DNA of 56,609 bases from positions 1-56,609 of the forward strand of contig JABMOI010000015.1 of assembly GCA_013204185.1 (NCBI GenBank), in the 5' to 3' direction. The notes under the pieces are model-generated. The model was not told the origin of the DNA, made no database searches, and was given only the letters and a program-made list of their open reading frames with translations. Source of the stretch: a bacterium. GTDB taxonomy: Bacteria > Bacteroidota > Rhodothermia > Rhodothermales > UBA10348. Positions 1-23,718 of the stretch are shown here, in pieces. A program made the translations under genes and the position numbers. Each line of letters opens with the position of its first letter. Within the stretch, counting starts at the first letter, position 1.

Positions 1-601
<601 letters not shown>

Positions 602-879: not shown

Positions 880-3444
880 ATGAATCGGGTTTCCGTTATG
901 CTCCGCCGTATCTCCTTTCTGCTCGCACTGGTATTATTAACTTCGTTTTCGGCTCTTGCCCAAGATTTACCCAGTATTGAGGCCAAAACAAAAGGTCTCG
1001 AAAAAATGGAGGGGTTCTATACCATTTATTGGGACGAGGCTGCAGGTAAGGTGTGGTTGGAAATAGACCGTTTTAATGAGGATTTCCTGTACCAAGTATC
1101 CCTCGCGGCCGGTCTTGGATCCAACGATATTGGCTTGGACCGCAATCAGTTAGGGGGAACGTACATCGTTCGTTTTGAGCGCCGAGGGCCCAAGGTCTTT
1201 ATGGTAGTTCCGAACTTGGATTACGTCGCCGTTTCAAAAAATGTAGCGGAACAACAATCTGTGCGCGATGCGTTCGCATCTGGTGTTATGCACGGCTTTA
1301 CCGTGGCTGCCCAGACAGATTCCAATGTGCTTGTCGATGCCACATCGTTCATTGTACGGGATGCACACGGAGCAGCAAACACGCTTAAGAGGTCGAATCA
1401 AGGAGCGTATCGGGTGGACGATTCTCGCTCCGCTCCCTACAAAGAGCGGACAAAAGCTTTTCCAAGAAATACCGAAATGGAGGCCATGCTCACGTTCACG
1501 TCTGACTCCCCCGGAGGTATTGTACGGAGCGTCGCGTCGCTTGCCGAATCGTTCACACTCAGAGAGCGCCATTCATTTATTGCGCTGCCTGAGCCGGGTT
1601 TTGAACCTCGAAAGAACGACCCCCGATCTGGCTATTTCGGACCTAGTTTTGTCGATTACTCCTCTCCGATCGGCTCAGATATGACGGTGCGCTACATTTC
1701 AAGACATCGGTTAGAAAAAATGGACCCTACGGCTGCCGTCTCAGATCCGGTTAAGCCCATTATTTACTACCTCGACAACGGAACGCCAGAACCAGTTCGT
1801 TCAGCTCTGTTGGAAGGCGCTCGCTGGTGGAACGGGGCGTTTGAGGCCGCCGGATACAGAAATGCATTTCAAGTTGAAGTTCTGCCGGACGGCGCCGACC
1901 CGCTCGACGTTCGCTACAACATTATAAACTGGGTCCATCGCTCCACACGAGGCTGGAGTTACGGTTCTTCCATTACAGATCCACGAACCGGTGAAATTCT
2001 CAAAGGACATGTGCTTTTAGGGTCCCTTCGAGTGAGACAAGATTATTTAATTGCTCAAGGACTGCTCAATATGTTTGACCCCTCGTTCACTGGAGGCGAT
2101 GAAAACGACCCGATGCTCAACATGGCCCTTGCTCGAATCCGCCAGCTCTCGGCACACGAGGTAGGCCATACGCTGGGACTTCAGCACAATTTTGCTGCAT
2201 CTGTAAACGACCGTGCTTCGGTTATGGATTACCCAGCTCCGCTAGCCAAAATGGATCCAAACAATCGGATTTTGCTTCACGACGCGTACGACACGGGCAT
2301 TGGCGAATGGGATAAAATCACCATCAAATATGGATACTCTGATTTCCCAGAAGGCACCGACGAACAGGCCGCGCTGAATACGATTGTGGACGAATACGTT
2401 GAGCAAGGATGGAAATACATTACCGATAACGACGCGCGCGACGAGGGTGGTTCTCACCCCCTTGCCCACCTTTGGGATAATGGAGCCAACGCGGTCGATG
2501 GGCTCAAGTTGGATATGGAGGTTCGCGCCGTTGCTCTGGGCCGCTTTGGCGTGAGCAATTTGCAACACGGACAGCCTATGGCCGCGTTGGAAGAAGTCCT
2601 CGTTCCGCTTTATCTGCGACATCGATATCAAGTAGAAGCGGTCTCCAAATTGATTGGTGGAGTTAACTACGCGTATAATGTTCGCGGAGACACTCAAGAA
2701 TTACCAACACCCGTATCTGCAGGCACGCAGCGCTCGGCTATAAATAGCTTGTTGTCAGTTGTTACACCTGGGGCATTAGCCCTGCCAGAGCATATTGCTA
2801 CTCAAATTCCACCTCGTCCTCCAGGGTACGGACCGCATCGCGAACTTTTCTCTGGGCACACCGGCCCGGTGTTTGACCCATATGCCCCGGCAGCGGTTGT
2901 GGCACAACAGGTGTTTGGCTTGTTGCTACATCCAGCCAGGACGGCTCGACTTACCTACCAGTCGGATTTCGATAAAGCACTGCCTGATTTTCTGAGTGTC
3001 CTAGTTATGTTTACACAACAAGTATGGCTCGCTGATATCCCCTCAGACCCCTACTTGGCCGAATTGCAACGCCTGACTCAGCAAGTTTGGGTTGATGCAC
3101 TCCTTTCAGCCGCAGCGTCTCCGGCTCAGTCCCCAGCGGCCCAATCGCGTATCCTGTTTCATTTGAGGGACCTGCACGAATGGCTCACCGAAAACGCCGA
3201 CCGTTCCGACGACGAAACCCGCGCCCACCGGTTTGCCGTTCTTGACGAAATTGATCGCTATATTTTCCGTCCGTACCAGGTCACCGAGCGCCCCGTCCCT
3301 GTAACCACGCCGCCTGGTTCTCCGATTGGCTCCATGATGGCCACAGATGCCCCCGCTTGGGCTATTCGCTCCGCAGAACGCGAGGCGTGGCTCAACGAAT
3401 GGATGGACGCAACGAACCTCTGCACATTTGAGCCTATCTTTTGA
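880..3444 (+). CDS. Secreted zinc-dependent metalloprotease (metzincin, EcxA/DUF4953-DUF5117 type)
   Basis: Signal peptide (..SALAQ), HEVGHTLGLQHNF zinc motif, SVMDY Met-turn, DPRTGEIL motif. The start may be 898. Confidence 0.9.
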   Translation: MNRVSVMLRRISFLLALVLLTSFSALAQDLPSIEAKTKGLEKMEGFYTIYWDEAAGKVWLEIDRFNEDFLYQVSLAAGLGSNDIGLDRNQLGGTYIVRFERRGPKVFMVVPNLDYVAVSKNVAEQQSVRDAFASGVMHGFTVAAQTDSNVLVDATSFIVRDAHGAANTLKRSNQGAYRVDDSRSAPYKERTKAFPRNTEMEAMLTFTSDSPGGIVRSVASLAESFTLRERHSFIALPEPGFEPRKNDPRSGYFGPSFVDYSSPIGSDMTVRYISRHRLEKMDPTAAVSDPVKPIIYYLDNGTPEPVRSALLEGARWWNGAFEAAGYRNAFQVEVLPDGADPLDVRYNIINWVHRSTRGWSYGSSITDPRTGEILKGHVLLGSLRVRQDYLIAQGLLNMFDPSFTGGDENDPMLNMALARIRQLSAHEVGHTLGLQHNFAASVNDRASVMDYPAPLAKMDPNNRILLHDAYDTGIGEWDKITIKYGYSDFPEGTDEQAALNTIVDEYVEQGWKYITDNDARDEGGSHPLAHLWDNGANAVDGLKLDMEVRAVALGRFGVSNLQHGQPMAALEEVLVPLYLRHRYQVEAVSKLIGGVNYAYNVRGDTQELPTPVSAGTQRSAINSLLSVVTPGALALPEHIATQIPPRPPGYGPHRELFSGHTGPVFDPYAPAAVVAQQVFGLLLHPARTARLTYQSDFDKALPDFLSVLVMFTQQVWLADIPSDPYLAELQRLTQQVWVDALLSAAASPAQSPAAQSRILFHLRDLHEWLTENADRSDDETRAHRFAVLDEIDRYIFRPYQVTERPVPVTTPPGSPIGSMMATDAPAWAIRSAEREAWLNEWMDATNLCTFEPIF

Positions 3445-3475
3445 TTTTATCGTTCTAATTTGGGCGTTTTGAAAT

Positions 3476-3513
3476 AAGCGGGGGGATTGAACATGCGTTC
3501 AATCCCCCCGCTT
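3476..3513. terminator. Long perfect hairpin between convergent genes (probable bidirectional terminator)
   Basis: AAGCGGGGGGATTGAAC-atgc-GTTCAATCCCCCCGCTT, a 17-bp perfect stem. Confidence 0.75.
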
Positions 3514-3557
3514 CGTTGCCAGAGCCCACCACCGCTCCAACAAAATCTAAGTCCAGC

Positions 3558-16150: not shown

Positions 16151-17086
16151 ATGCCCATTCTACGCGTAGAAGGCGTTACAAAACGCTACGGCAAGTTCGT
16201 CGCCGTAAATAACGTTTCGTTCGAAGCACAACCGGGCCGCATCCTTGGCCTTCTTGGCCCTAACGGAGCCGGAAAGACTACTACCATCCGCATGGTGACC
16301 TATATCACCGTTCCGGACGAAGGACGAGTTATGTTTGGTGATTCAGAAGTAAGTCCTGTTTCTCAAGAAAACATGGGCTATTTGCCGGAAGAACGCGGGC
16401 TCTACAAAAAGATGAAGGTAGGCGAGCAGCTCATGTACTTTGCTGAGCTGAAGGGCATGAACAGAACGGAGGCTCGCGAAAAAATTAGATACTGGCTCGA
16501 CCGGTTTGGCGCGCTCGAATGGGTGAACAAGAAAACCAACGAGCTATCCAAAGGGATGCAGCAGAAAATCCAGTTTATTGCGACCATCCTGCACAACCCA
16601 AAGCTTCTCATTCTGGATGAACCCTTTGGCGGACTCGACCCGATCAACGCCGAATTACTTCAGAATGTGATCATGGAGCTCAAGGATGAAGGACGGACCA
16701 TTCTTTTTGCGTCCCATCGAATGGAGCAAGTCGAGCAGCTCTGCGACGATATCTGCCTCGTTTCCAGGGGCGAAATCGTAGTCAAAGGAGCGCTTACGGA
16801 CATCAAACGGCAGTTCGGAAAGAACACCGTGATGATGGATTTTGAAGGATCTGACGTGTTTTTGGATGAATTGGAATCCAAAGGGGCGGTCAGGTTAGGG
16901 TCTCGAAGCACCCGGCACGCCGAACTCAATCTGCTGGGGACTACCACGCCAAAGCACATTTTGGAAGTAGCATTGCCTCACGTGTCTAACATTACCCGAT
17001 TTGAACTCGTTGAACCGCCCATGCGTGAGATTTTTGTGACTGCGGTCACGAAACAGCAAGGCGAACAAGCAGCAGCAACCGTTTAA
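16151..17086 (+). CDS. ABC-2 exporter ATP-binding protein (NatA/YhaQ-like)
   Basis: GPNGAGKTT, GYLPEERGLY, LSKGMQQK, ILDEPF, SH switch, DUF4162-like tail. Confidence 0.92.
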   Translation: MPILRVEGVTKRYGKFVAVNNVSFEAQPGRILGLLGPNGAGKTTTIRMVTYITVPDEGRVMFGDSEVSPVSQENMGYLPEERGLYKKMKVGEQLMYFAELKGMNRTEAREKIRYWLDRFGALEWVNKKTNELSKGMQQKIQFIATILHNPKLLILDEPFGGLDPINAELLQNVIMELKDEGRTILFASHRMEQVEQLCDDICLVSRGEIVVKGALTDIKRQFGKNTVMMDFEGSDVFLDELESKGAVRLGSRSTRHAELNLLGTTTPKHILEVALPHVSNITRFELVEPPMREIFVTAVTKQQGEQAAATV

Positions 17087-17098
17087 GAGCGAATTATC

Positions 17099-18412
17099 AT
17101 GTCTAGAAATAAAATATTTGTTGTCGCCAAAAACGAGTTCACCAAGCGAGTAAAAACGCATTGGTTCGTTATCACAACGCTGTTGGGGCCCATCGTGTTA
17201 GTGACCTTTTTCACTGTGGTTGGCTTCATAACTGCCTCTTCGCTCGAAACCACAGAGAAATCCATTACGGTTCGCGATGAAACCGGCCGCTTAGCGACGG
17301 AACTGGTCGATACCTCGGGCAAAATCACGTTTGAAACCACTCAGGCAAGCGACGACGACCTCAAAACATCTGTGCTCAACAAAGAAGTCTCAGGGTATCT
17401 TGTACTTCCCGAAGGGCTTATTGAAGGCACCGCGTCCGCAAGTTATTATTCAACAGAAGGCGGCGGAATCAGCAATTTCTCGGGAGAACTTCGCTCCATT
17501 GTACGCGATGCTGTGCGTTTAACGCGCCTCGAAGATCAAGATGTGTCCAGGGACGTGTTCGACGCGATTACGGCCAACGTCTCCCTCGATTCCATCCAGC
17601 TTTCGGATGAAGGCGAGGAGCAAGGTAGCACGGCGGCTTACGCCATTGTGGGCGGTATCATGGGCTTTTTGATTTACATCACCATGCTCATTTACGGCTC
17701 CGTCGTGATGCAGGGTGTGATTGAAGAAAAAGTGAGCCGCGTTGTGGAAGTGATAGTGTCTTCCGTCAAGCCATTTCAACTACTGATGGGCAAAGTCCTC
17801 GGTATTGGCGCCATGGGACTTGTACAAATGTCATTTTGGGCCATTTTGATTGCCGCTGGCACCACGTTTTCAGGCGCCATTATCGCTATGATTGCGCCCG
17901 CAGATGCTGTTACCGCCATCGATGGTGCCATAGCTGGGGCTCCCTCACAAGCAGAAATCTTGGAATCTATTGGATTCACCGTTCCCGACCTCGGACCTGA
18001 AGTCTTTATCTTTTTTGTGCTCTACTTCCTTTTGGGCTATCTACTTTATGCCACGCTTTTCGCTGGTATTGGCTCGTCTGTGGAGCAACAACAAGATGCT
18101 CAGAGCCTGATGATACCTGTGATGATGCCCATCATTGTGTCCATCATCTTTCTCCAGGCAGTGATCGAAGCGCCCAACTCCACCCTCTCGGTGGTTCTTT
18201 CGATCTTTCCCTTCACGGCGCCCATCCCCATGGTGGTGCGAATCGCTATGATTGACGTCCCCTGGTGGCAAGTGGGACTCTCCGTGTCGCTGCTCTTCGG
18301 CACGTTCCTCGGCGCCGTCTGGGTTAGCTCCCGGATCTACCGCATCGGCATTCTTTCCTACGGCAAAAAGCCATCCTTGAAAGAGCTTATTCGCTGGATG
18401 CGGTACGCATAG
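17099..18412 (+). CDS. ABC-2 exporter permease (NatB/YhaP-like)
   Basis: N-terminal TM, large external loop, V.EEK.SRVVEVIVSSVKPFQLLMGKVLG, multiple C-terminal TMs, IYRIGIL.YGKKPS. Confidence 0.92.
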   Translation: MSRNKIFVVAKNEFTKRVKTHWFVITTLLGPIVLVTFFTVVGFITASSLETTEKSITVRDETGRLATELVDTSGKITFETTQASDDDLKTSVLNKEVSGYLVLPEGLIEGTASASYYSTEGGGISNFSGELRSIVRDAVRLTRLEDQDVSRDVFDAITANVSLDSIQLSDEGEEQGSTAAYAIVGGIMGFLIYITMLIYGSVVMQGVIEEKVSRVVEVIVSSVKPFQLLMGKVLGIGAMGLVQMSFWAILIAAGTTFSGAIIAMIAPADAVTAIDGAIAGAPSQAEILESIGFTVPDLGPEVFIFFVLYFLLGYLLYATLFAGIGSSVEQQQDAQSLMIPVMMPIIVSIIFLQAVIEAPNSTLSVVLSIFPFTAPIPMVVRIAMIDVPWWQVGLSVSLLFGTFLGAVWVSSRIYRIGILSYGKKPSLKELIRWMRYA

Positions 18413-18620
18413 AGCGTCTTCTTGCATTTCGAATGAGAGCTTGTGGCTCTTCAGCCATTAGCTCAATCAGTGACATTTTAGATGACGCCTTCACGCCTTG
18501 GGAATCGTCAATTTCCCAACGTTCATACGTTCGTTTTGGCACTCCAAATATGAATGCCATTCCAGCTTGGCTTTGGCCAAGCACCTCTCGTATGACTCGA
18601 AGCTTTTTCGCCGGTTGATC
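18387..18620 (-). pseudogene. Probable truncated XRE-family HTH (HigA/MqsA-like antitoxin) remnant
   Basis: Frame reads KKLRVIREVLGQSQAGMAFIFGVPKRTYERWE...LIELMAEEPQAL. There is no ATG/GTG/TTG start between the upstream in-frame TAG and the first HTH helix. Confidence 0.5.
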
Positions 18621-18754
18621 GCCCTTTCCATTCGAAACAACAAGGTACGTGATAGCGGCGGCTTTGAGGAAGGATGGTATTACGAGGGTGAGAGCTAGGA
18701 CAGGCTAGAACTCAAAGTTAAAGAGCTCCTAGGTTACTGATTCCTGTGAGATTT

Positions 18755-19741
18755 TTAGTCGCCAGAGATAACCCACCTTTCGAAGTTCTCAACCACCTTA
18801 CCGAATGCCTTCTGGTATTCAAGTCCAGGATAGTCGCGGCCGTCAGGGACGAAAACATCATGAAACTCAAATGCGTTTCGGTGCGACTCGACCAAATCCC
18901 GAGCACGAGAGGCAGATACGTAACTATTTTGATCGCTTTTGGCAGCGGTCAAACAGATTTGTTTGGCGGAAATCAGGAAGTCAAACAGGGCACTCCACAT
19001 AACCCATTTCGGATGATGGCGATGTCCCTCTTCTCCTGGTTGAAAAAGCTCCAGCCAAGGCTTTCTGCTGGTTGAGTAGGTGGCTGGTCGAGAAATGGAT
19101 TCTCTCACAAGTCCTGCCATTGCCATTTCTTTGAGCGCGTCACGAACTGCTGTTTGTGTAAAGCTGAGATGAGTACTGATCGTAGAAACCGTGACCTCCC
19201 TTCCAGACGTTCCTACGAGAAGAGCGATAATGTCTGCCTTAGCGCCCACTCCAAACGCTGCGCGAAGTCGAAGGAGCAATGTGGGACATCCCCTCAGGGT
19301 CAATTCTGATCTCTGAAAACCATCCGGAAGTCTTGTTACTTTCTCGGCATATTTGGCCCAACTCCTGTAACCATAACGGGAGGCCAACTCGGCAAAATGA
19401 ACAAATAAGTCCTTTCTAGAACTGTTTGTATTCGTCGCTAACACTTTCATTCTCTGTACGCTTAAGAGCGGAGTCCCGGCTCCTGCCCACCAATCTAGAA
19501 CTTCGTTAATGCGCTTTTCAGCGGATTGGAAGACGAGTGAAGCAAGAATGAGCGCTTCAGGATCTATAATCCGAAGCGCTTCGTGACCAGAAGTGGGGTT
19601 TGCCATCGAACCCAGGTTGGCCCATTGGTTCCAAATTATGTCTAAGGCCAACCGATCGATTCTATGACCGATGCCTTCCCAGTTGGATTCTGAGTTTGTC
19701 ACTTGCTTGTTCAACAAATTGTTTGAAATACTCACTTTCAT
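18755..19741 (-). CDS. Uncharacterised protein with central winged-HTH; partner of the DUF6036-like nucleotidyltransferase
   Basis: 328-aa ORF; N-terminal LDIIWNQWANLG...IDPEALIL; wHTH-like VTVSTISTHLSFTQTAVRDALKEMAMAGLV; overlaps the upstream gene by 80 nt. Confidence 0.7.
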   Translation of the reverse strand: MKVSISNNLLNKQVTNSESNWEGIGHRIDRLALDIIWNQWANLGSMANPTSGHEALRIIDPEALILASLVFQSAEKRINEVLDWWAGAGTPLLSVQRMKVLATNTNSSRKDLFVHFAELASRYGYRSWAKYAEKVTRLPDGFQRSELTLRGCPTLLLRLRAAFGVGAKADIIALLVGTSGREVTVSTISTHLSFTQTAVRDALKEMAMAGLVRESISRPATYSTSRKPWLELFQPGEEGHRHHPKWVMWSALFDFLISAKQICLTAAKSDQNSYVSASRARDLVESHRNAFEFHDVFVPDGRDYPGLEYQKAFGKVVENFERWVISGD

Positions 19742-20258
19742 CCTGGGTTTTTACCCAGTCAATAGCTCGAGTTAGTTCTTTTTCACTAGGGCGGAGCGCG
19801 ATCAAATCTTGCCAATGTTTTGATTCAGGGCCTTGATCAATCGATGCAAATAATTTCAACGGGATTAAGCCTTTCCTTCCCACCATCCCAACTTCTAACG
19901 GGCCAAAGTCGAGCCAGGAGATATCTTCGTACAGTGAATCGGGTAGTCCAAATGTCCATTGGTTATCAATCACAGTGTTCAGCCAATTTTTTGGCAAATT
20001 GAAATCGCGCGCTACCCGTTCGATTACCAAACGAATTTCTTCTTGGAACGGGGAAGCTTTTGAAAAAATCAGTTTTCCATCATGCGTTTCAGCTTTTGCA
20101 ATTACATCCACGTCTTTTGTTGTTCTCCCAACAAGATTCGAAGCTGCAAGACTTGCTCCACCAACAACAACAATTTTAATTGATAGTCCGCCTTCTTCCA
20201 TATAGGCTCCAAGAGCGGAAAAAAGCTGAAAAAGTATCCTTCCGTCGAAATCAGTCAT
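19662..20258 (-). CDS. DUF6036-like nucleotidyltransferase (Pol-beta superfamily, AbiEii/MenT-like)
   Basis: IVVVGGASL...RTTKDVDVI catalytic-type motif, LPKNWLN, LKLFA and KHWQDL C-terminal motif. Confidence 0.8.
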   Translation of the reverse strand: MTDFDGRILFQLFSALGAYMEEGGLSIKIVVVGGASLAASNLVGRTTKDVDVIAKAETHDGKLIFSKASPFQEEIRLVIERVARDFNLPKNWLNTVIDNQWTFGLPDSLYEDISWLDFGPLEVGMVGRKGLIPLKLFASIDQGPESKHWQDLIALRPSEKELTRAIDWVKTQDESEYFKQFVEQASDKLRIQLGRHRS

Positions 20259-20267
20259 CTTAAAGTA

Positions 20268-20320
20268 AGTTCAACTTTTGTTATTAACAAGTTCAACTAT
20301 CTTTTATGGAAAGTTGAACC
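20268..20320. promoter_or_regulatory. Array of three 9-bp palindromes at a 22-bp period immediately upstream of the nucleotidyltransferase
   Basis: AGTTCAACT (20268), AGTTCAACT (20290), AGTTGAACC (20312); each is preceded by A. Confidence 0.65.
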
Positions 20321-20409
20321 TCTTTTTCTTGTATTTCAAAAGGACACGGTCGGAGTGTATTCATACCTCTATTGGGATCTATTCCACGCCACAATCGGTT
20401 TGGCTCAAG

Positions 20410-23400
20410 ATGAAAAGGCGGCTTTCCTTCATACTAATAGGAGTCTTTCTTGGCCTGGTGGGGGCTGGGACGGCGCACGCCCAGTACTTCCGGTATGGGA
20501 AGAACAAGGTTCATTACGCGGAGCAGGAGTGGTTTTACATTCAGAGCCAACACTTTAACGTCTTTTATTATGGGGACGGGGAGTATTTGGCGGACTTTGC
20601 GACACGGGCGGCTGAGGAGGCGATGTCTTCGCTGGAGGAGTTGTTTGATTTTAGGCCGGATGAGCGTATTCCCATTATCGTTTACCCCAATCACGGGGAG
20701 TTTTCGGTAACCAATGCGGTAGACCTTCCCACGTACACGGATGGGATTGGGGGCGTCACGGAGATGTTCAAGAACCGCATTGCCATCCCATTTAGCGGGG
20801 ACTATTCGGATTTTAGGCGGGTGGTCCATCACGAATTGGTGCACGCCGTTATTAATGCCGTGTATTACGGCGGATCTATTCAGTCCTTGATTCAAACGGG
20901 TACCAAGATGCGGATTCCGCTGTGGTTCAACGAGGGGCTGGCCGAGTATCAGGCGTTGGGCTGGGATACGAATTCAGATATGTATGTCCGGGAAGCCATC
21001 CTTGAGGATGAGCTCGCGCCCATCGACGAACTTTACGGGTACTACGCGTACCGGGGCGGGCAGAGCGTTTGGGACTACATCGCTGAGCAATATGGGGATC
21101 AGAAGGTTGCTGAAATCCTGAAGCGGCTTCGGTCGGCTAGGTCGGTGGAGCAAGCCATTTTAAAGTCCATTGGGCTGAATTTGGATGAACTGAACGACCG
21201 CTGGCAACGCGCCCTCAGAGAGGTCTACTTCCCGGAAGTGACTGCGCGCGAATCCCTTGAGGAGATTGCCGAGCCCATCATCACAAGAAAACATGGGTTC
21301 TATAACACGAGCCCGGCGCTGTCTCCGCTTGGAGACCGGATTGCATTTGTGACCACGACAAGCGGATTGTTCGACATCTACATTGCTCGCACGGACGATG
21401 GGACCATAGAAAAGCGGTTGGTGCAAGGCCAGCTTTCGCAGGACTTTGAGGCGCTTCCTATCCTTACACCGGGCATCGCTTGGAGTCCTGACGGCAGGCA
21501 GATTGCGGTGGCCGTTCGAAGCGGAAGTACGGAGGCCATTGTGCTTATTGATGTGCTTACTGGGGTGGAACGCCGCATTGAAACGCCCCAATTTGCTCAG
21601 ATTTTGTCCATTTCTTGGAATCCAGATGGGATGAGGATGGCCGTGAGCGCCAGCAATGGGGTTCAAAGTGACATTTACAGTCTGAACCTAACGGACGGCG
21701 CAACGACGAACTTGACGGACGATGTGTACAGCGACCTCGAGCCCGCGTGGAGCCCAGACGGAGAAACCATCGTGTTCCATTCGGACCGCGGGGCAGACAC
21801 GGAGATGAGGAGTTTTACGCGTGAAACAACGCGCATTTTCGATAAACAGATTGAGCAGACGGACCTCTACATGCTCACCGAAACATCCCGATTTGCAAGG
21901 CGCCTGACAGTGGACGAAACCTGGAACGAGCGCAGCGCCAGGTTTGGGCGAGATCCAGACCGGATAGTGTTTGTGAGCGACAAGAACGGCATTCCCAATC
22001 TCTACGAAAAACATTTGATCAGCGGCCAAATCAGGGCGCTAACAGACCTAGATGTGGGCATTATTCAAGTCACGATGGCCTCCAAAAATGATGTGGCGGC
22101 CGTGGTTTCGCTCAAGAACGGGACGCCCACGATCTACGCCATTCGAAAGCCGTTTGAACGCTCTCAGCCCCGTGACCCACTCATGCCCAATGTGTGGGCG
22201 CAACGCGTCGATCAAACCGACTTTAGGGTGGCGCCCGCTCTCGCGGTGGCTGGCCGCGCCCGGTTGGAGGGCAACCCCTTCCTTCGCGACGCAAACGACG
22301 GTATTCCGTACTCGCGCGGGCGCCAAAGACTGCTCCCCGATCAACCCGTTCATGTGGCGCTCAAGGACCTAATCAAATCCACTTCTCAAGCAGATTCCAT
22401 CTCCAAATCTCTTTGGCAGAACCGAAAACAGATCGAACTGCCCGTGGACTCGTTCGCGCGCGGCGTGCAGGTTGACTTCGAGTCGCTTACGCGTCGGCCA
22501 GAGCCCGCGAATATCGAGGAGTTGATGCCCGCTTCGGCACTGCAGCTGAAACCAATTGTGGACGAAGAAGGCAACTACATTCCTCAGCGATACAAACTTC
22601 GGTTTTCGCCGGACATCGTGTATGGGGCAGCGGGATACGATGCCTTGTATGGCGTGCAGGGAATAACCCAGATGGAGTTTAGCGACATGCTGGGGGATCA
22701 CAAGATTATTGTGTCCTCCAACCTGCTGCTCGATCTGCGGAATTCGGATTATATGCTCGCCTACCACTACCTCCCTCGGCGGATAGACTGGTCGCTTTCG
22801 ACTTTCCATATCTCAAGGCTGCTGGCTGATTTTACGCTCGTGGACCCGACCTACTATCGGTACCGTCAGTATGGGGCGCACATTGAAGCGAGTATTCCCC
22901 TCGACAAATTCCACCGATTGGACGCCAGAATTGGCATTGTGGGGGTTAATCAGGCGGACGTAACGGACGTGACACGGCCTTCGAGCTCAAGAACCTTACT
23001 CGTGCCCTCCATCACCTATACCAAAGACACCACGACGCCCGGTTACACGTATCCCATTTCAGGATCCCGCCTGGCGGTTTCATTCTCGGGCGCTCCTACC
23101 AGTTTTGGTGACTCGTCTATTCGATTTGGAACCGTCTTGTTTGATGGCCGCTTGTATCGATCCTTCGGAAATGCCCGCTACACATGGGCCATGCGACTTT
23201 CGGCTGGGAGCTCCTTTGGGCCGTATCAACAAGTCTTCTATACCTCGGGCGTACAAAACTGGTTGAATCGCAATTTTGATGACGTAAACGGTTTTCCGCT
23301 GGACGATGTGGCCGATTTCGTGTTTGCAACGCCCATTATGCCGCTTCGAGGCTTCGATATTAACGCAGCCAACGGGAGCCACTTTTCAGTGATAAACGCC

Positions 23401-23718
23401 GAGTTCCGATTCCCACTGGTGGCGGCCTTGCTCCCTGGCCCCATTCCTGTTATCCCTTTGTATAACATTCAGGGGCAGGTATTCGCCGATGTTGGCAACG
23501 TTTGGGGAGGCCGTTCGTCCGTTGGCCAGTTTGGATCGAATGCAAATGGGAGCGCCGAGCGGCGTCCCCGACGATATGATGACCTGCTCATTGGTACAGG
23601 CTTTGGTATTCGAACGCTGTTTCTCGGATATCCGGTTCGACTCGATTTTGCATGGCCTTTCGACGGGAAAGAGTTCGGAGATCGACAGACGTACATCAGT
23701 GTTGGACTGGATTTTTAA
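20410..23718 (+). CDS. Omp85/BamA-family protein fused to an N-terminal zinc-peptidase-like domain and PD40/TolB propeller repeats
   Basis: Signal peptide from MKRRLSF (ATG 20410). HHELVH...WFNEGLAEY; repeats PALSPLG, AWSPDG, SWNPDG, PAWSPDG; barrel motifs PLRGF, NAEFRFP, FADVGNVW, GFGIR; terminal GLDF. Confidence 0.85.
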   Translation: MKRRLSFILIGVFLGLVGAGTAHAQYFRYGKNKVHYAEQEWFYIQSQHFNVFYYGDGEYLADFATRAAEEAMSSLEELFDFRPDERIPIIVYPNHGEFSVTNAVDLPTYTDGIGGVTEMFKNRIAIPFSGDYSDFRRVVHHELVHAVINAVYYGGSIQSLIQTGTKMRIPLWFNEGLAEYQALGWDTNSDMYVREAILEDELAPIDELYGYYAYRGGQSVWDYIAEQYGDQKVAEILKRLRSARSVEQAILKSIGLNLDELNDRWQRALREVYFPEVTARESLEEIAEPIITRKHGFYNTSPALSPLGDRIAFVTTTSGLFDIYIARTDDGTIEKRLVQGQLSQDFEALPILTPGIAWSPDGRQIAVAVRSGSTEAIVLIDVLTGVERRIETPQFAQILSISWNPDGMRMAVSASNGVQSDIYSLNLTDGATTNLTDDVYSDLEPAWSPDGETIVFHSDRGADTEMRSFTRETTRIFDKQIEQTDLYMLTETSRFARRLTVDETWNERSARFGRDPDRIVFVSDKNGIPNLYEKHLISGQIRALTDLDVGIIQVTMASKNDVAAVVSLKNGTPTIYAIRKPFERSQPRDPLMPNVWAQRVDQTDFRVAPALAVAGRARLEGNPFLRDANDGIPYSRGRQRLLPDQPVHVALKDLIKSTSQADSISKSLWQNRKQIELPVDSFARGVQVDFESLTRRPEPANIEELMPASALQLKPIVDEEGNYIPQRYKLRFSPDIVYGAAGYDALYGVQGITQMEFSDMLGDHKIIVSSNLLLDLRNSDYMLAYHYLPRRIDWSLSTFHISRLLADFTLVDPTYYRYRQYGAHIEASIPLDKFHRLDARIGIVGVNQADVTDVTRPSSSRTLLVPSITYTKDTTTPGYTYPISGSRLAVSFSGAPTSFGDSSIRFGTVLFDGRLYRSFGNARYTWAMRLSAGSSFGPYQQVFYTSGVQNWLNRNFDDVNGFPLDDVADFVFATPIMPLRGFDINAANGSHFSVINAEFRFPLVAALLPGPIPVIPLYNIQGQVFADVGNVWGGRSSVGQFGSNANGSAERRPRRYDDLLIGTGFGIRTLFLGYPVRLDFAWPFDGKEFGDRQTYISVGLDF

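Follow-up and report, generated by a model that had tools for sequence, protein, structure and literature searches.

Two overlapping genes on the minus strand of a Rhodothermales contig (JABMOI010000015.1, analysed over 56,609 nucleotides that are referred to here as the window) raise the question of whether a nucleotidyltransferase (NTase) of the DUF6036 family and the unnamed winged-helix protein encoded behind it (the partner) work as toxin and antitoxin and, if they do, which of the two is harmful. An initial annotation of positions 18755 to 20320 had described a candidate toxin-antitoxin (TA) or anti-phage cassette of two minus-strand genes set between plus-strand envelope genes; both open reading frames (ORFs) and their flanks lie as it described, and the motifs it quoted, GG..RxTxDxD and KHxxDL in the NTase and DPEAL and a central winged helix-turn-helix (HTH) in the partner, are present and conserved across 38 relatives of the former and 33 of the latter. 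On balance, we lean towards reading the pair as a mobile, autoregulated TA module of the AbiE/MenAT kind, in which the toxin gene comes first and the antitoxin belongs to a new family. The observations computed here that bear on this are the anatomy of the locus, motif conservation, the one-sided linkage of the two genes, insertion/deletion polymorphism, decay of the NTase, promoter repeats and a model of the complex.

The linkage of the two genes is one-sided: at E<=1e-20 the NTase was not seen without the partner, and the partner is often found alone. When 401 genomes sampled evenly across the phylum of the window were searched with the A2 profile, the partner was directly downstream at five of five NTase matches at E<=1e-20; a sixth, weak match (G234, E 5.9e-6) has no partner, and one genome (G007) holds a partial partner alone. 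Among 201 genomes of one Gemmatimonadota order (counts that include one pair in G515 and one partial partner in G581, two genomes flagged as unpublished), 15 carry the NTase and 37 the partner; 14 of the 15 NTase matches are followed directly by the partner, the 15th falling at a contig end, and 23 of the 37 partner-bearing genomes have no NTase. Joined, the two samples give 19 of 19 assessable NTase matches at E<=1e-20 with the partner directly downstream. Seen from the partner side, a survey of 80 loci on one-genome-per-species contigs, of which four have no upstream DNA and 76 can be assessed, found the NTase directly upstream on the same strand and intact in 42, damaged in 11 and absent in 23, the operon arrangement, with an intact or damaged enzyme, thus being present in 53 of the 76. 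The obligate pairing that had been proposed as a check therefore holds for the NTase and fails for the partner.

This asymmetry bears on what else the pair could be. If the NTase modified a small molecule such as an antibiotic and the partner were its dedicated winged-helix repressor, the two forming an inducible resistance or detoxification operon, the enzyme should also occur without its regulator, and none of the 19 assessable matches does; we regard this reading as improbable. A reversal of roles is less probable still. In MNT-HEPN pairs the NTase gene comes first and overlaps the partner gene, the same order as here, and by that model the NTase would be an antitoxin that modifies the partner, whose C-terminal domain (R281-x5-H287) would be a HEPN-like RNase toxin. 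Nevertheless, the partner is intact beside a decayed or absent NTase in 34 of the 76 loci, as well as in the 23 genomes mentioned above, a state that a cell should not survive if the partner were a toxin in need of the NTase. The serious rival, which we consider unlikely and the other two less likely, makes the partner a chromosomal transcription factor with a sensing N-terminal domain and the NTase an enzyme that nucleotidylates or phosphorylates it or its ligand, with no toxin involved; the linkage fits this as well, since an enzyme useless without its substrate would likewise never occur alone.

Decay of the NTase speaks more directly to which gene is harmful. The enzyme is degraded in 11 of the 53 loci that bear it, being reduced to a stump in L002, interrupted by internal deletions in L008 and L018, deprived of its N-terminal half in L036, L038, L061 and L079, and altered by frame changes in L010, L039, L056 and L075. 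On a quick IQ-TREE phylogeny of the partner (71 rows; loci whose match covered fewer than 231 query residues or contained X, ten of the 80, were excluded), the ten rows with a degraded NTase are scattered and correspond to ten changes, at least eight of them forced by supported branches. In addition, two representatives of 416-438 aa (P0171 and P0230) carry an N-terminal DUF6036 fragment (about residues 12-58) fused in frame to a full partner, and look like further decay products in which deletions removed the catalytic core of the NTase. Taken with the one-sided linkage and with the empty site described below, this repeated loss marks the NTase as the gene that can be dispensed with and probably does harm, and the partner as its keeper. 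That the enzyme has decayed repeatedly and independently while the partner beside it stayed intact is easier to reconcile with a harmful gene than with the tuning enzyme of the transcription-factor reading, and repeated decay also argues against a resistance enzyme.

The partner, in turn, has clades in which it stands alone: one in Longimicrobium (seven rows, support 100), one in Gemmatimonadota behind a DnaE2-like gene (six rows, support 99), and scattered single solo forms. The Longimicrobium solo loci (L015, L017, L026, L033, L037, L040, L055 and L059) each have the same two ORFs upstream; vertical inheritance of the partner as a core gene is suggested for this group. In L020, L048, L054 and L062 the partner (at about 1842, 4983, 4974 and 1624, respectively) lies directly behind a very long ORF that, judged by eye, presumably starts like an error-prone DnaE2-type polymerase, and the partner of these loci may have been domesticated to regulate a mutagenesis cassette.

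Comparison with close relatives shows that the pair is accessory and not part of a syntenic core, as the initial annotation had allowed for. The partner is present in 12 of 41 relatives and in three of the five other genomes of the genus. At the site occupied in the window, G002 carries an intact pair and G003 an intact partner with an NTase of which only the last ~36-45 codons remain; in G001 the site is empty, the flanking genes being 117 nt apart, and a 48-66% identical pair lies on another contig; in G004 no partner was found, and the permease gene is followed by other DNA. When the spacer of the empty site in G001 was compared by eye with the flanks in the window, no alignable junction and no target-site duplication were seen. 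The pair is thus likely a horizontally acquired, accessory and mobile operon. Because congeners gain, lose and relocate it as one block, and because its composition is foreign, it departs from what a chromosomal regulator with its modifying enzyme would lead one to expect.

The foreign composition is unevenly distributed. Against a G+C content of 0.508 for the whole window, the NTase gene has 0.424, the 0.9th percentile among windows of the same length, and 0.352 at third codon positions (GC3), whereas the partner gene reaches 0.483 (10th percentile; GC3 0.477) and the flanking genes have a GC3 of 0.57-0.63. The AT-richness first noted for the whole cassette is therefore clear for the NTase gene and its promoter and milder for the partner. 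The extent of the promoter region depends on the divergent flanking gene, which encodes a Peptidase_MA/PD40/Omp85 protein and whose ORF as listed has 1146 aa from a TTG at 20278. Its true start is most likely an ATG at ~20410 (MKRRLSFILIGVFLGLVGAGTAHA, which resembles a signal peptide by eye), which makes the divergent spacer (20259-20409) ~151 nt long; the G+C content of this spacer is 0.364.

Within this spacer, three copies of one site (Table 1) fall 9 to 61 nt upstream of the NTase start codon. The pattern has seven matches in the window versus 1.01 expected, four of them (three sites) in the candidate operator, and the same three-site layout is found in G002 at the same locus and ahead of the relocated copy in G001. 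More distant loci have different repeated 8-12-mers spaced by ~22 bp. In 12 of 46 loci, the 80 nt ahead of the NTase start contain an exact 8-mer that recurs at a distance of 18-26 nt, whereas none of 40 distal control stretches has one, and shuffled sequences yield 0.66 such loci on average and 3 at most. These predicted sites look like the operator of an autorepressed operon that co-evolves with its repressor. A promoter and terminator scan of 18350-20450, whose models do not cover Bacteroidota promoters, gave no more than shuffled sequence.

Table 1. Features of the locus. Positions of genes and DNA sites refer to the window; motifs and domains are given as residues of the protein named.
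Feature	Position	Strand	Basis or remark
DUF6036 Pol-beta-type nucleotidyltransferase (NTase), 198 aa, putative toxin	19662..20258	-	ORF and motifs
Partner protein, putative antitoxin/autorepressor, 328 aa (first ATG)	18755..19741	-	ORF and conservation
Candidate operator	20262..20326	.	Three AAGTTSAAC sites, inverted repeats I1 and I2
AAGTTSAAC sites	20267-20275, 20289-20297, 20311-20319		22 bp apart
ABC ATPase	16151-17086	+	Flank on partner side
ABC-2 permease	17099-18412	+	Flank on partner side
Peptidase_MA/PD40/Omp85 protein, ~1100 aa	ORF 20278-23718	+	Flank on NTase side
NTase motif I	V32-G33-G34		Has the hG[GS] pattern
NTase motif II	R45-T46-T47-K48-D49-V50-D51		Has RxTxDxD, with the Arg and a Thr at the phospho-acceptor position
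NTase motif III-like	K135-L-F-A138		Closing Arg replaced by nearly invariant D141
NTase motif IV-like	K147-H148-W-Q-D151-L152		His in place of the first Asp of +DxxD
Partner N-domain	About 20-130		Five helices (to 121); invariant D60, E62, L64, R77, W85, R97
Partner winged helix	About 148-239		Central; invariant L155, R160, G164, A169 at its start, and W229
Partner C-domain	About 249-326		Helical; invariant R281

The two genes overlap by 80 nt, or by 56 nt if the partner begins at the alternative TTG start at 19717 (320 aa, as in the database gene call P0001). Just downstream of the partner gene, a stop-to-stop frame at 18387-18704 on the minus strand (105 aa) encodes an Xre-type HTH that weakly resembles the C-terminal part of the MqsA family of antitoxins (E 0.012 against TIGR03830, over positions 77-123 of its 127). 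No ATG, GTG or TTG stands ahead of the HTH in this frame, which extends into the 3' end of the permease gene and resembles the remains of an antitoxin gene truncated at its 5' end. Such a remnant would suggest that the spacer has been home to two or more TA modules.

The sequence of the enzyme places it near known toxins. All 38 NTase relatives, from whose A2 alignment conservation was read, match DUF6036 (PF19502; best E 7.3e-11), and 27 match AbiEii (PF08843) weakly (best E 2.5e-6); the closest solved structure by the A2 profile is MenT1 (8an4, E 0.02), with R45/T47/K48/D49/D51 of the NTase aligned to R37/T39/R40/D41/D43 of MenT1 and K135 to K137. With RxTxDxD in common as well, these matches uphold the kinship to AbiEii and MenT that had been proposed. 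Sixteen residues do not vary among the relatives (G33, G34, R45, T47, D49, W92, P106, L121, R128, K135, A138, H148, D151, L152, P157 and E161), and D51 is nearly invariant. The DUF1814 motifs are reported to be hG[GS] (I), DhD with an extra Arg (II), KLxAaxxR (III) and +DxxD (IV), each being needed for AbiEii toxicity, which mutation abolishes (Dy et al., 2014, PMC3985639), and positions aligned to the NTase signature are reported to be needed for toxicity, nucleotide binding or phosphorylation (PMC3985639; PMC11375011). Toxins of this type are reported to extend the 3' ends of tRNA with nucleotides and to be silenced by antitoxin-induced autophosphorylation of a Ser or Thr that lies two residues ahead of the DxD, namely T39 in MenT1, S78 in MenT3 and T65 in AbiEii (Xu et al., 2024, PMC11375011; preprint 10.64898/2026.01.19.700257). 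Since the first Asp of motif IV is a His throughout its clade, the enzyme of the window is classed as a superfamily relative and not as a member of DUF1814.

This signature also separates the readings to some extent. By fold alone, a toxin and a small-molecule NTase cannot be told apart. The AF2 model of the NTase (pLDDT 93.8) gives middling whole-chain fold matches tied among three groups, and Foldseek against the Protein Data Bank (PDB) returned no match at E<=0.001 for the model of either protein. It is the sequence signature that favours kinship with AbiEii and MenT. In motifs III and IV the enzyme departs from AbiEii, as a small-molecule enzyme might, but the Pfam family Aminoglyc_resit matches just one of the 38 relatives (E 0.088) as opposed to 27 for AbiEii. 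Similarly, that RxTxDxD is complete in the NTase, down to the Thr at the phospho-acceptor position, as in the toxins, tells against a regulator's modifying enzyme, and a two-lobed enzyme of 198 aa with DUF1814-type C-terminal motifs is not a minimal MNT.

The partner belongs to a large unnamed family. A word-index search found 66 relatives, and a profile run against 1.84 billion representatives matched 2327 at E<=1e-3, of which 1807 reach E<=1e-10 and 862 reach E<=1e-30; almost all have 300-340 aa and align over their full length, and none bears a family name. The AF2 model (pLDDT 88.7) is all-helical except for the wing, and W37xQW40 and D60-P-E62-A-L64 are invariant or nearly so among the 33 relatives. 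Pfam gives weak winged-helix matches only, around residues 170-225 (MarR_2 in 18 of 33 members); there is no NCBIfam family for the window partner; and PADLOC recognises only the winged-helix parts of Csa3/CARF models (best E 4.9e-5). No AbiEi model was found in the 33 members at E<=1 among the 25 of 33 matched Pfam families that were listed (the others having one member each), and the same Pfam library does recognise a true AbiEi_4 protein beside L006, in keeping with the early remark that the enzyme gene comes first and the partner does not look like AbiEi. The COG4861-type partners of COG4849 NTases, which we take to be Pfam DUF1612 (PF07756), gave no match at E<=0.001 in a six-frame search of 21 genomes that covered the pair-bearing G000-G003, G006, G008, G025 and G032; this search is a weak one, being silent in 14 control genomes too. 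Structural comparison was similarly dominated by the winged helix, which accounts for all matches of the partner model in BFVD and fills a wide VIA-align search; in the ESM Atlas the whole partner falls in unnamed clusters in 27 of 30 matches, and its N-domain found no usable match among named clusters. Two partner matches (G001:C4:3534-4502 and G015:C42:12544-13509) contain one in-frame stop each (TAG and TAA, respectively), and the partner too can therefore be broken in some genomes. The partner family is thus large, unnamed and without annotation, probably a new antitoxin-like one, and merits a family definition.

The rival readings each find something in these data. MarR/ArsR-type winged helices, to which the weak matches belong, commonly regulate small-molecule-modifying enzymes, and a family of 2327 representative clusters would suit a chromosomal transcription factor. 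For the MNT-HEPN-like role reversal, the R-x5-H spacing is present in the window partner, with R281 invariant and in the predicted interface; against it, ~10 of 33 relatives have Y, S, N, W, L, I or A at the position of H287, and no HEPN model was found at E<=1 in the 33 members among the matched Pfam families listed. A further conjecture, which we put forward tentatively, is that the partner class (at least 2300 clusters at 50% identity) has a sensor or an enzyme in its invariant N-domain (W37, Q39, W40, D60, E62, R77, W85, R97), would act, where paired, as a trigger-controlled keeper of the NTase in a new abortive-infection or stress system, and would have been domesticated in the solo clades, one of them fixed beside a DnaE2-type gene. 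If this is true, the signal would be read by the N-domain of the antitoxin and not through antitoxin turnover.

Modelling supports direct binding of the two proteins. The predicted complex reaches an ipSAE of 0.73 (three runs, 0.71-0.73) compared with 0.01 for the best control; the ipSAE mark is reached by 116 of 157 solved complexes and by 2 of 215 mismatched pairs. The runs share at least 67% of their contacts, and the partner has a pLDDT of at least 81. In the predicted interface, NTase helices 11-22 and 81-87, the latter with the nearly invariant R84 and D85, contact residues 272-281 (including R281) and 301-309 of the partner. The R84/D85 stretch adjoins R84 of MenT1 in the profile alignment, a residue reported to sit at the gamma-phosphate of the NTP (PMC11375011); this hints that the partner would reach the edge of the nucleotide pocket of the NTase. 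Direct binding would also be expected of an enzyme that modifies its regulator, but the predicted contacts are not made at the GG/DxD catalytic loops. As for a small-molecule NTase, a predicted stable complex together with a 56-80 nt gene overlap would be unusual for a repressor and resistance-gene pair.

By analogy with MenT and AbiEii, we infer a scheme that would cover toxicity, an RNA target, a route of neutralisation and DNA binding. The NTase would add nucleotides to the 3' ends of RNA, most likely at tRNA acceptor ends, and thereby stop translation. The partner gene, overlapping that of the NTase, is probably translationally coupled to it, and its product would bind the NTase through the C-terminal helical domain and neutralise it by sequestration and/or by inducing autophosphorylation of Thr47. 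Finally, the winged helix of the partner would bind the three GTTSAAC sites and repress the operon.

Several points weigh against the pair being a TA module of this kind. The partner is far larger than an antitoxin needs to be. The window NTase clears the DUF6036 cut-off by just 0.3 bits (23.9 versus 23.6, over profile positions 3-76 of 164 only), has no PF08843 match at E<=1 in Pfam, and gives no match at E<=1 in PADLOC-DB 2.0, where the AbiE models are silent; its variant motifs III (D141) and IV (KHxxD) may indicate a substrate or chemistry that differs from that of AbiEii and MenT. The predicted interface, on helices 11-22 and 81-87, lies away from the GG/DxD loops. The frame changes in L010, L039, L056 and L075, which come from metagenome bins, could be assembly errors. 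With regard to mobility, tblastn found no copy on plasmids or phages (the partner was searched in both annotated collections and the NTase in plasmids). Lastly, the invariant residues of the partner are all kept in the vertically inherited clades that lack the NTase (Longimicrobium and the DnaE2-adjacent group), from which it follows that the partner has a function of its own, as the transcription-factor reading would have it.

The surroundings of the pair vary widely. Neighbouring ORFs of 40 pair-bearing loci (the nearest ones, 138 of 144 greedily chosen ORFs being scanned and the six longest left out) are unrelated from locus to locus, aside from genes of biological conflict. TA, defence or mobile-element genes lie near the pair in 11 of the 40 loci, a raw count with no matched control; set against the enrichment in defence islands that had been envisaged, conflict genes are only modestly frequent. 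These 11 loci contain AbiEi_4 with AbiEii, Fic, DUF5615, HepT, a DDE transposase, HNH_2, M78 with DUF4411 and DarT, HsdM, HsdR, TOTE-AEP with Schlafen, and an integrase. In L006 the DUF6036 pair has a canonical AbiEi_4 and AbiEii pair (1980-3523; PF13338 E 3.4e-7; PF08843 E 2.2e-45) immediately downstream, which shows that these are separate NTase modules able to occur as neighbours. Behind the pair in L049 (6279-8874) are a Peptidase_M78, DUF4411 and a DarT ADP-ribosyltransferase; L073 has a TOTE AEP-helicase and a Schlafen AlbA_2 protein near the pair, and L050 and L070 have type I restriction subunits.

If the pair is a TA module, its interest lies in the class to which it would be added. 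MenT/AbiEii-type NTases are actively studied as toxins, and the partners covered so far are of the AbiEi/COG5340 and MenA1 types. The present locus ties DUF6036, a Pfam family without an assigned function, to this class, with a new partner family and a reversed gene order; what is likely new here is a DUF6036 branch of MenT/AbiEii-like NTases accompanied by a new antitoxin-like family. One-sided linkage, an empty site and repeated NTase decay provide a clear prior on which gene is harmful, and the locus offers a means of testing whether antitoxins induce autophosphorylation of the conserved Thr outside DUF1814 as well. A full-text search for 'DUF6036' and 'PF19502', with subscription-only papers and supplements outside its reach, found no paper.

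Among known systems, the antibiotic NTases ANT(2'')-Ia and Lnu-type enzymes have no family support in the matches given above, and resistance enzymes have no tie to a binding partner. HEPN-MNT pairs of type VII resemble the present locus in that the NTase gene comes first and overlaps that of a helical partner, and in the R-x5-H string of the partner C-domain. Unlike in these pairs, the partner matches no HEPN model and its His is not conserved; moreover, the NTase of HEPN-MNT pairs is the antitoxin, whereas here a partner that is commonly alone and an NTase that was not seen alone point the opposite way.

The mycobacterial MenAT systems offer a further comparison. In MenAT3/TglT-TakA (Rv1045-Rv1044) and MenAT4 (Rv2826c-Rv2827c) the toxins have ~290 aa and the antitoxins are of AbiEi type and encoded upstream; the partner has no detectable relation to these. 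MenAT1 of Mycobacterium tuberculosis (MenA1-MenT1, Rv0078B-Rv0078A) has a toxin of 196 aa, compared with 198 aa for the NTase, and the catalytic residues R37/T39/D41/D43/K137/D152 of MenT1 all have counterparts in the NTase; D149 of MenT1 corresponds to the invariant His of the NTase clade, and the sequence similarity of the two enzymes is marginal. The antitoxin of MenT1 is reported to bind the toxin directly and to induce its autophosphorylation (PMC11375011). This antitoxin, MenA1, is a helical protein of 7.4 kDa without a winged helix, encoded upstream, whereas the partner is a three-domain protein of 36 kDa encoded downstream.

The AbiE system (AbiEi-AbiEii of Streptococcus agalactiae and Lactococcus) combines a DUF1814 NTase toxin with a COG5340 winged-helix antitoxin. 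The gene order here is the reverse, with the enzyme first; in the literature consulted, DUF1814 pairs are regulator-first (COG5340 with COG2253, COG4861 with COG4849, and MenA1). AbiEi has an N-terminal winged helix followed by an alpha/beta C-domain, whereas the winged helix of the partner is central, between two helical domains. The NTase is ~100 aa shorter than the AbiEii-type enzymes of neighbouring loci (306 aa in L006), and unlike AbiEii it has no Arg in motif III and a His for the first Asp of motif IV, with no match to the AbiE models of PADLOC. A toxin-antitoxin complex has been reported for AbiE (10.64898/2026.01.19.700257), whereas the complex here is a predicted one. Like AbiE, the pair is a bicistronic operon in which a Pol-beta NTase is combined with a winged-helix protein, its promoter repeats suggest autorepression, and R63/T65/D67/D69 of the RxTxDxD motif of AbiEii are represented here by R45/T47/D49/D51.

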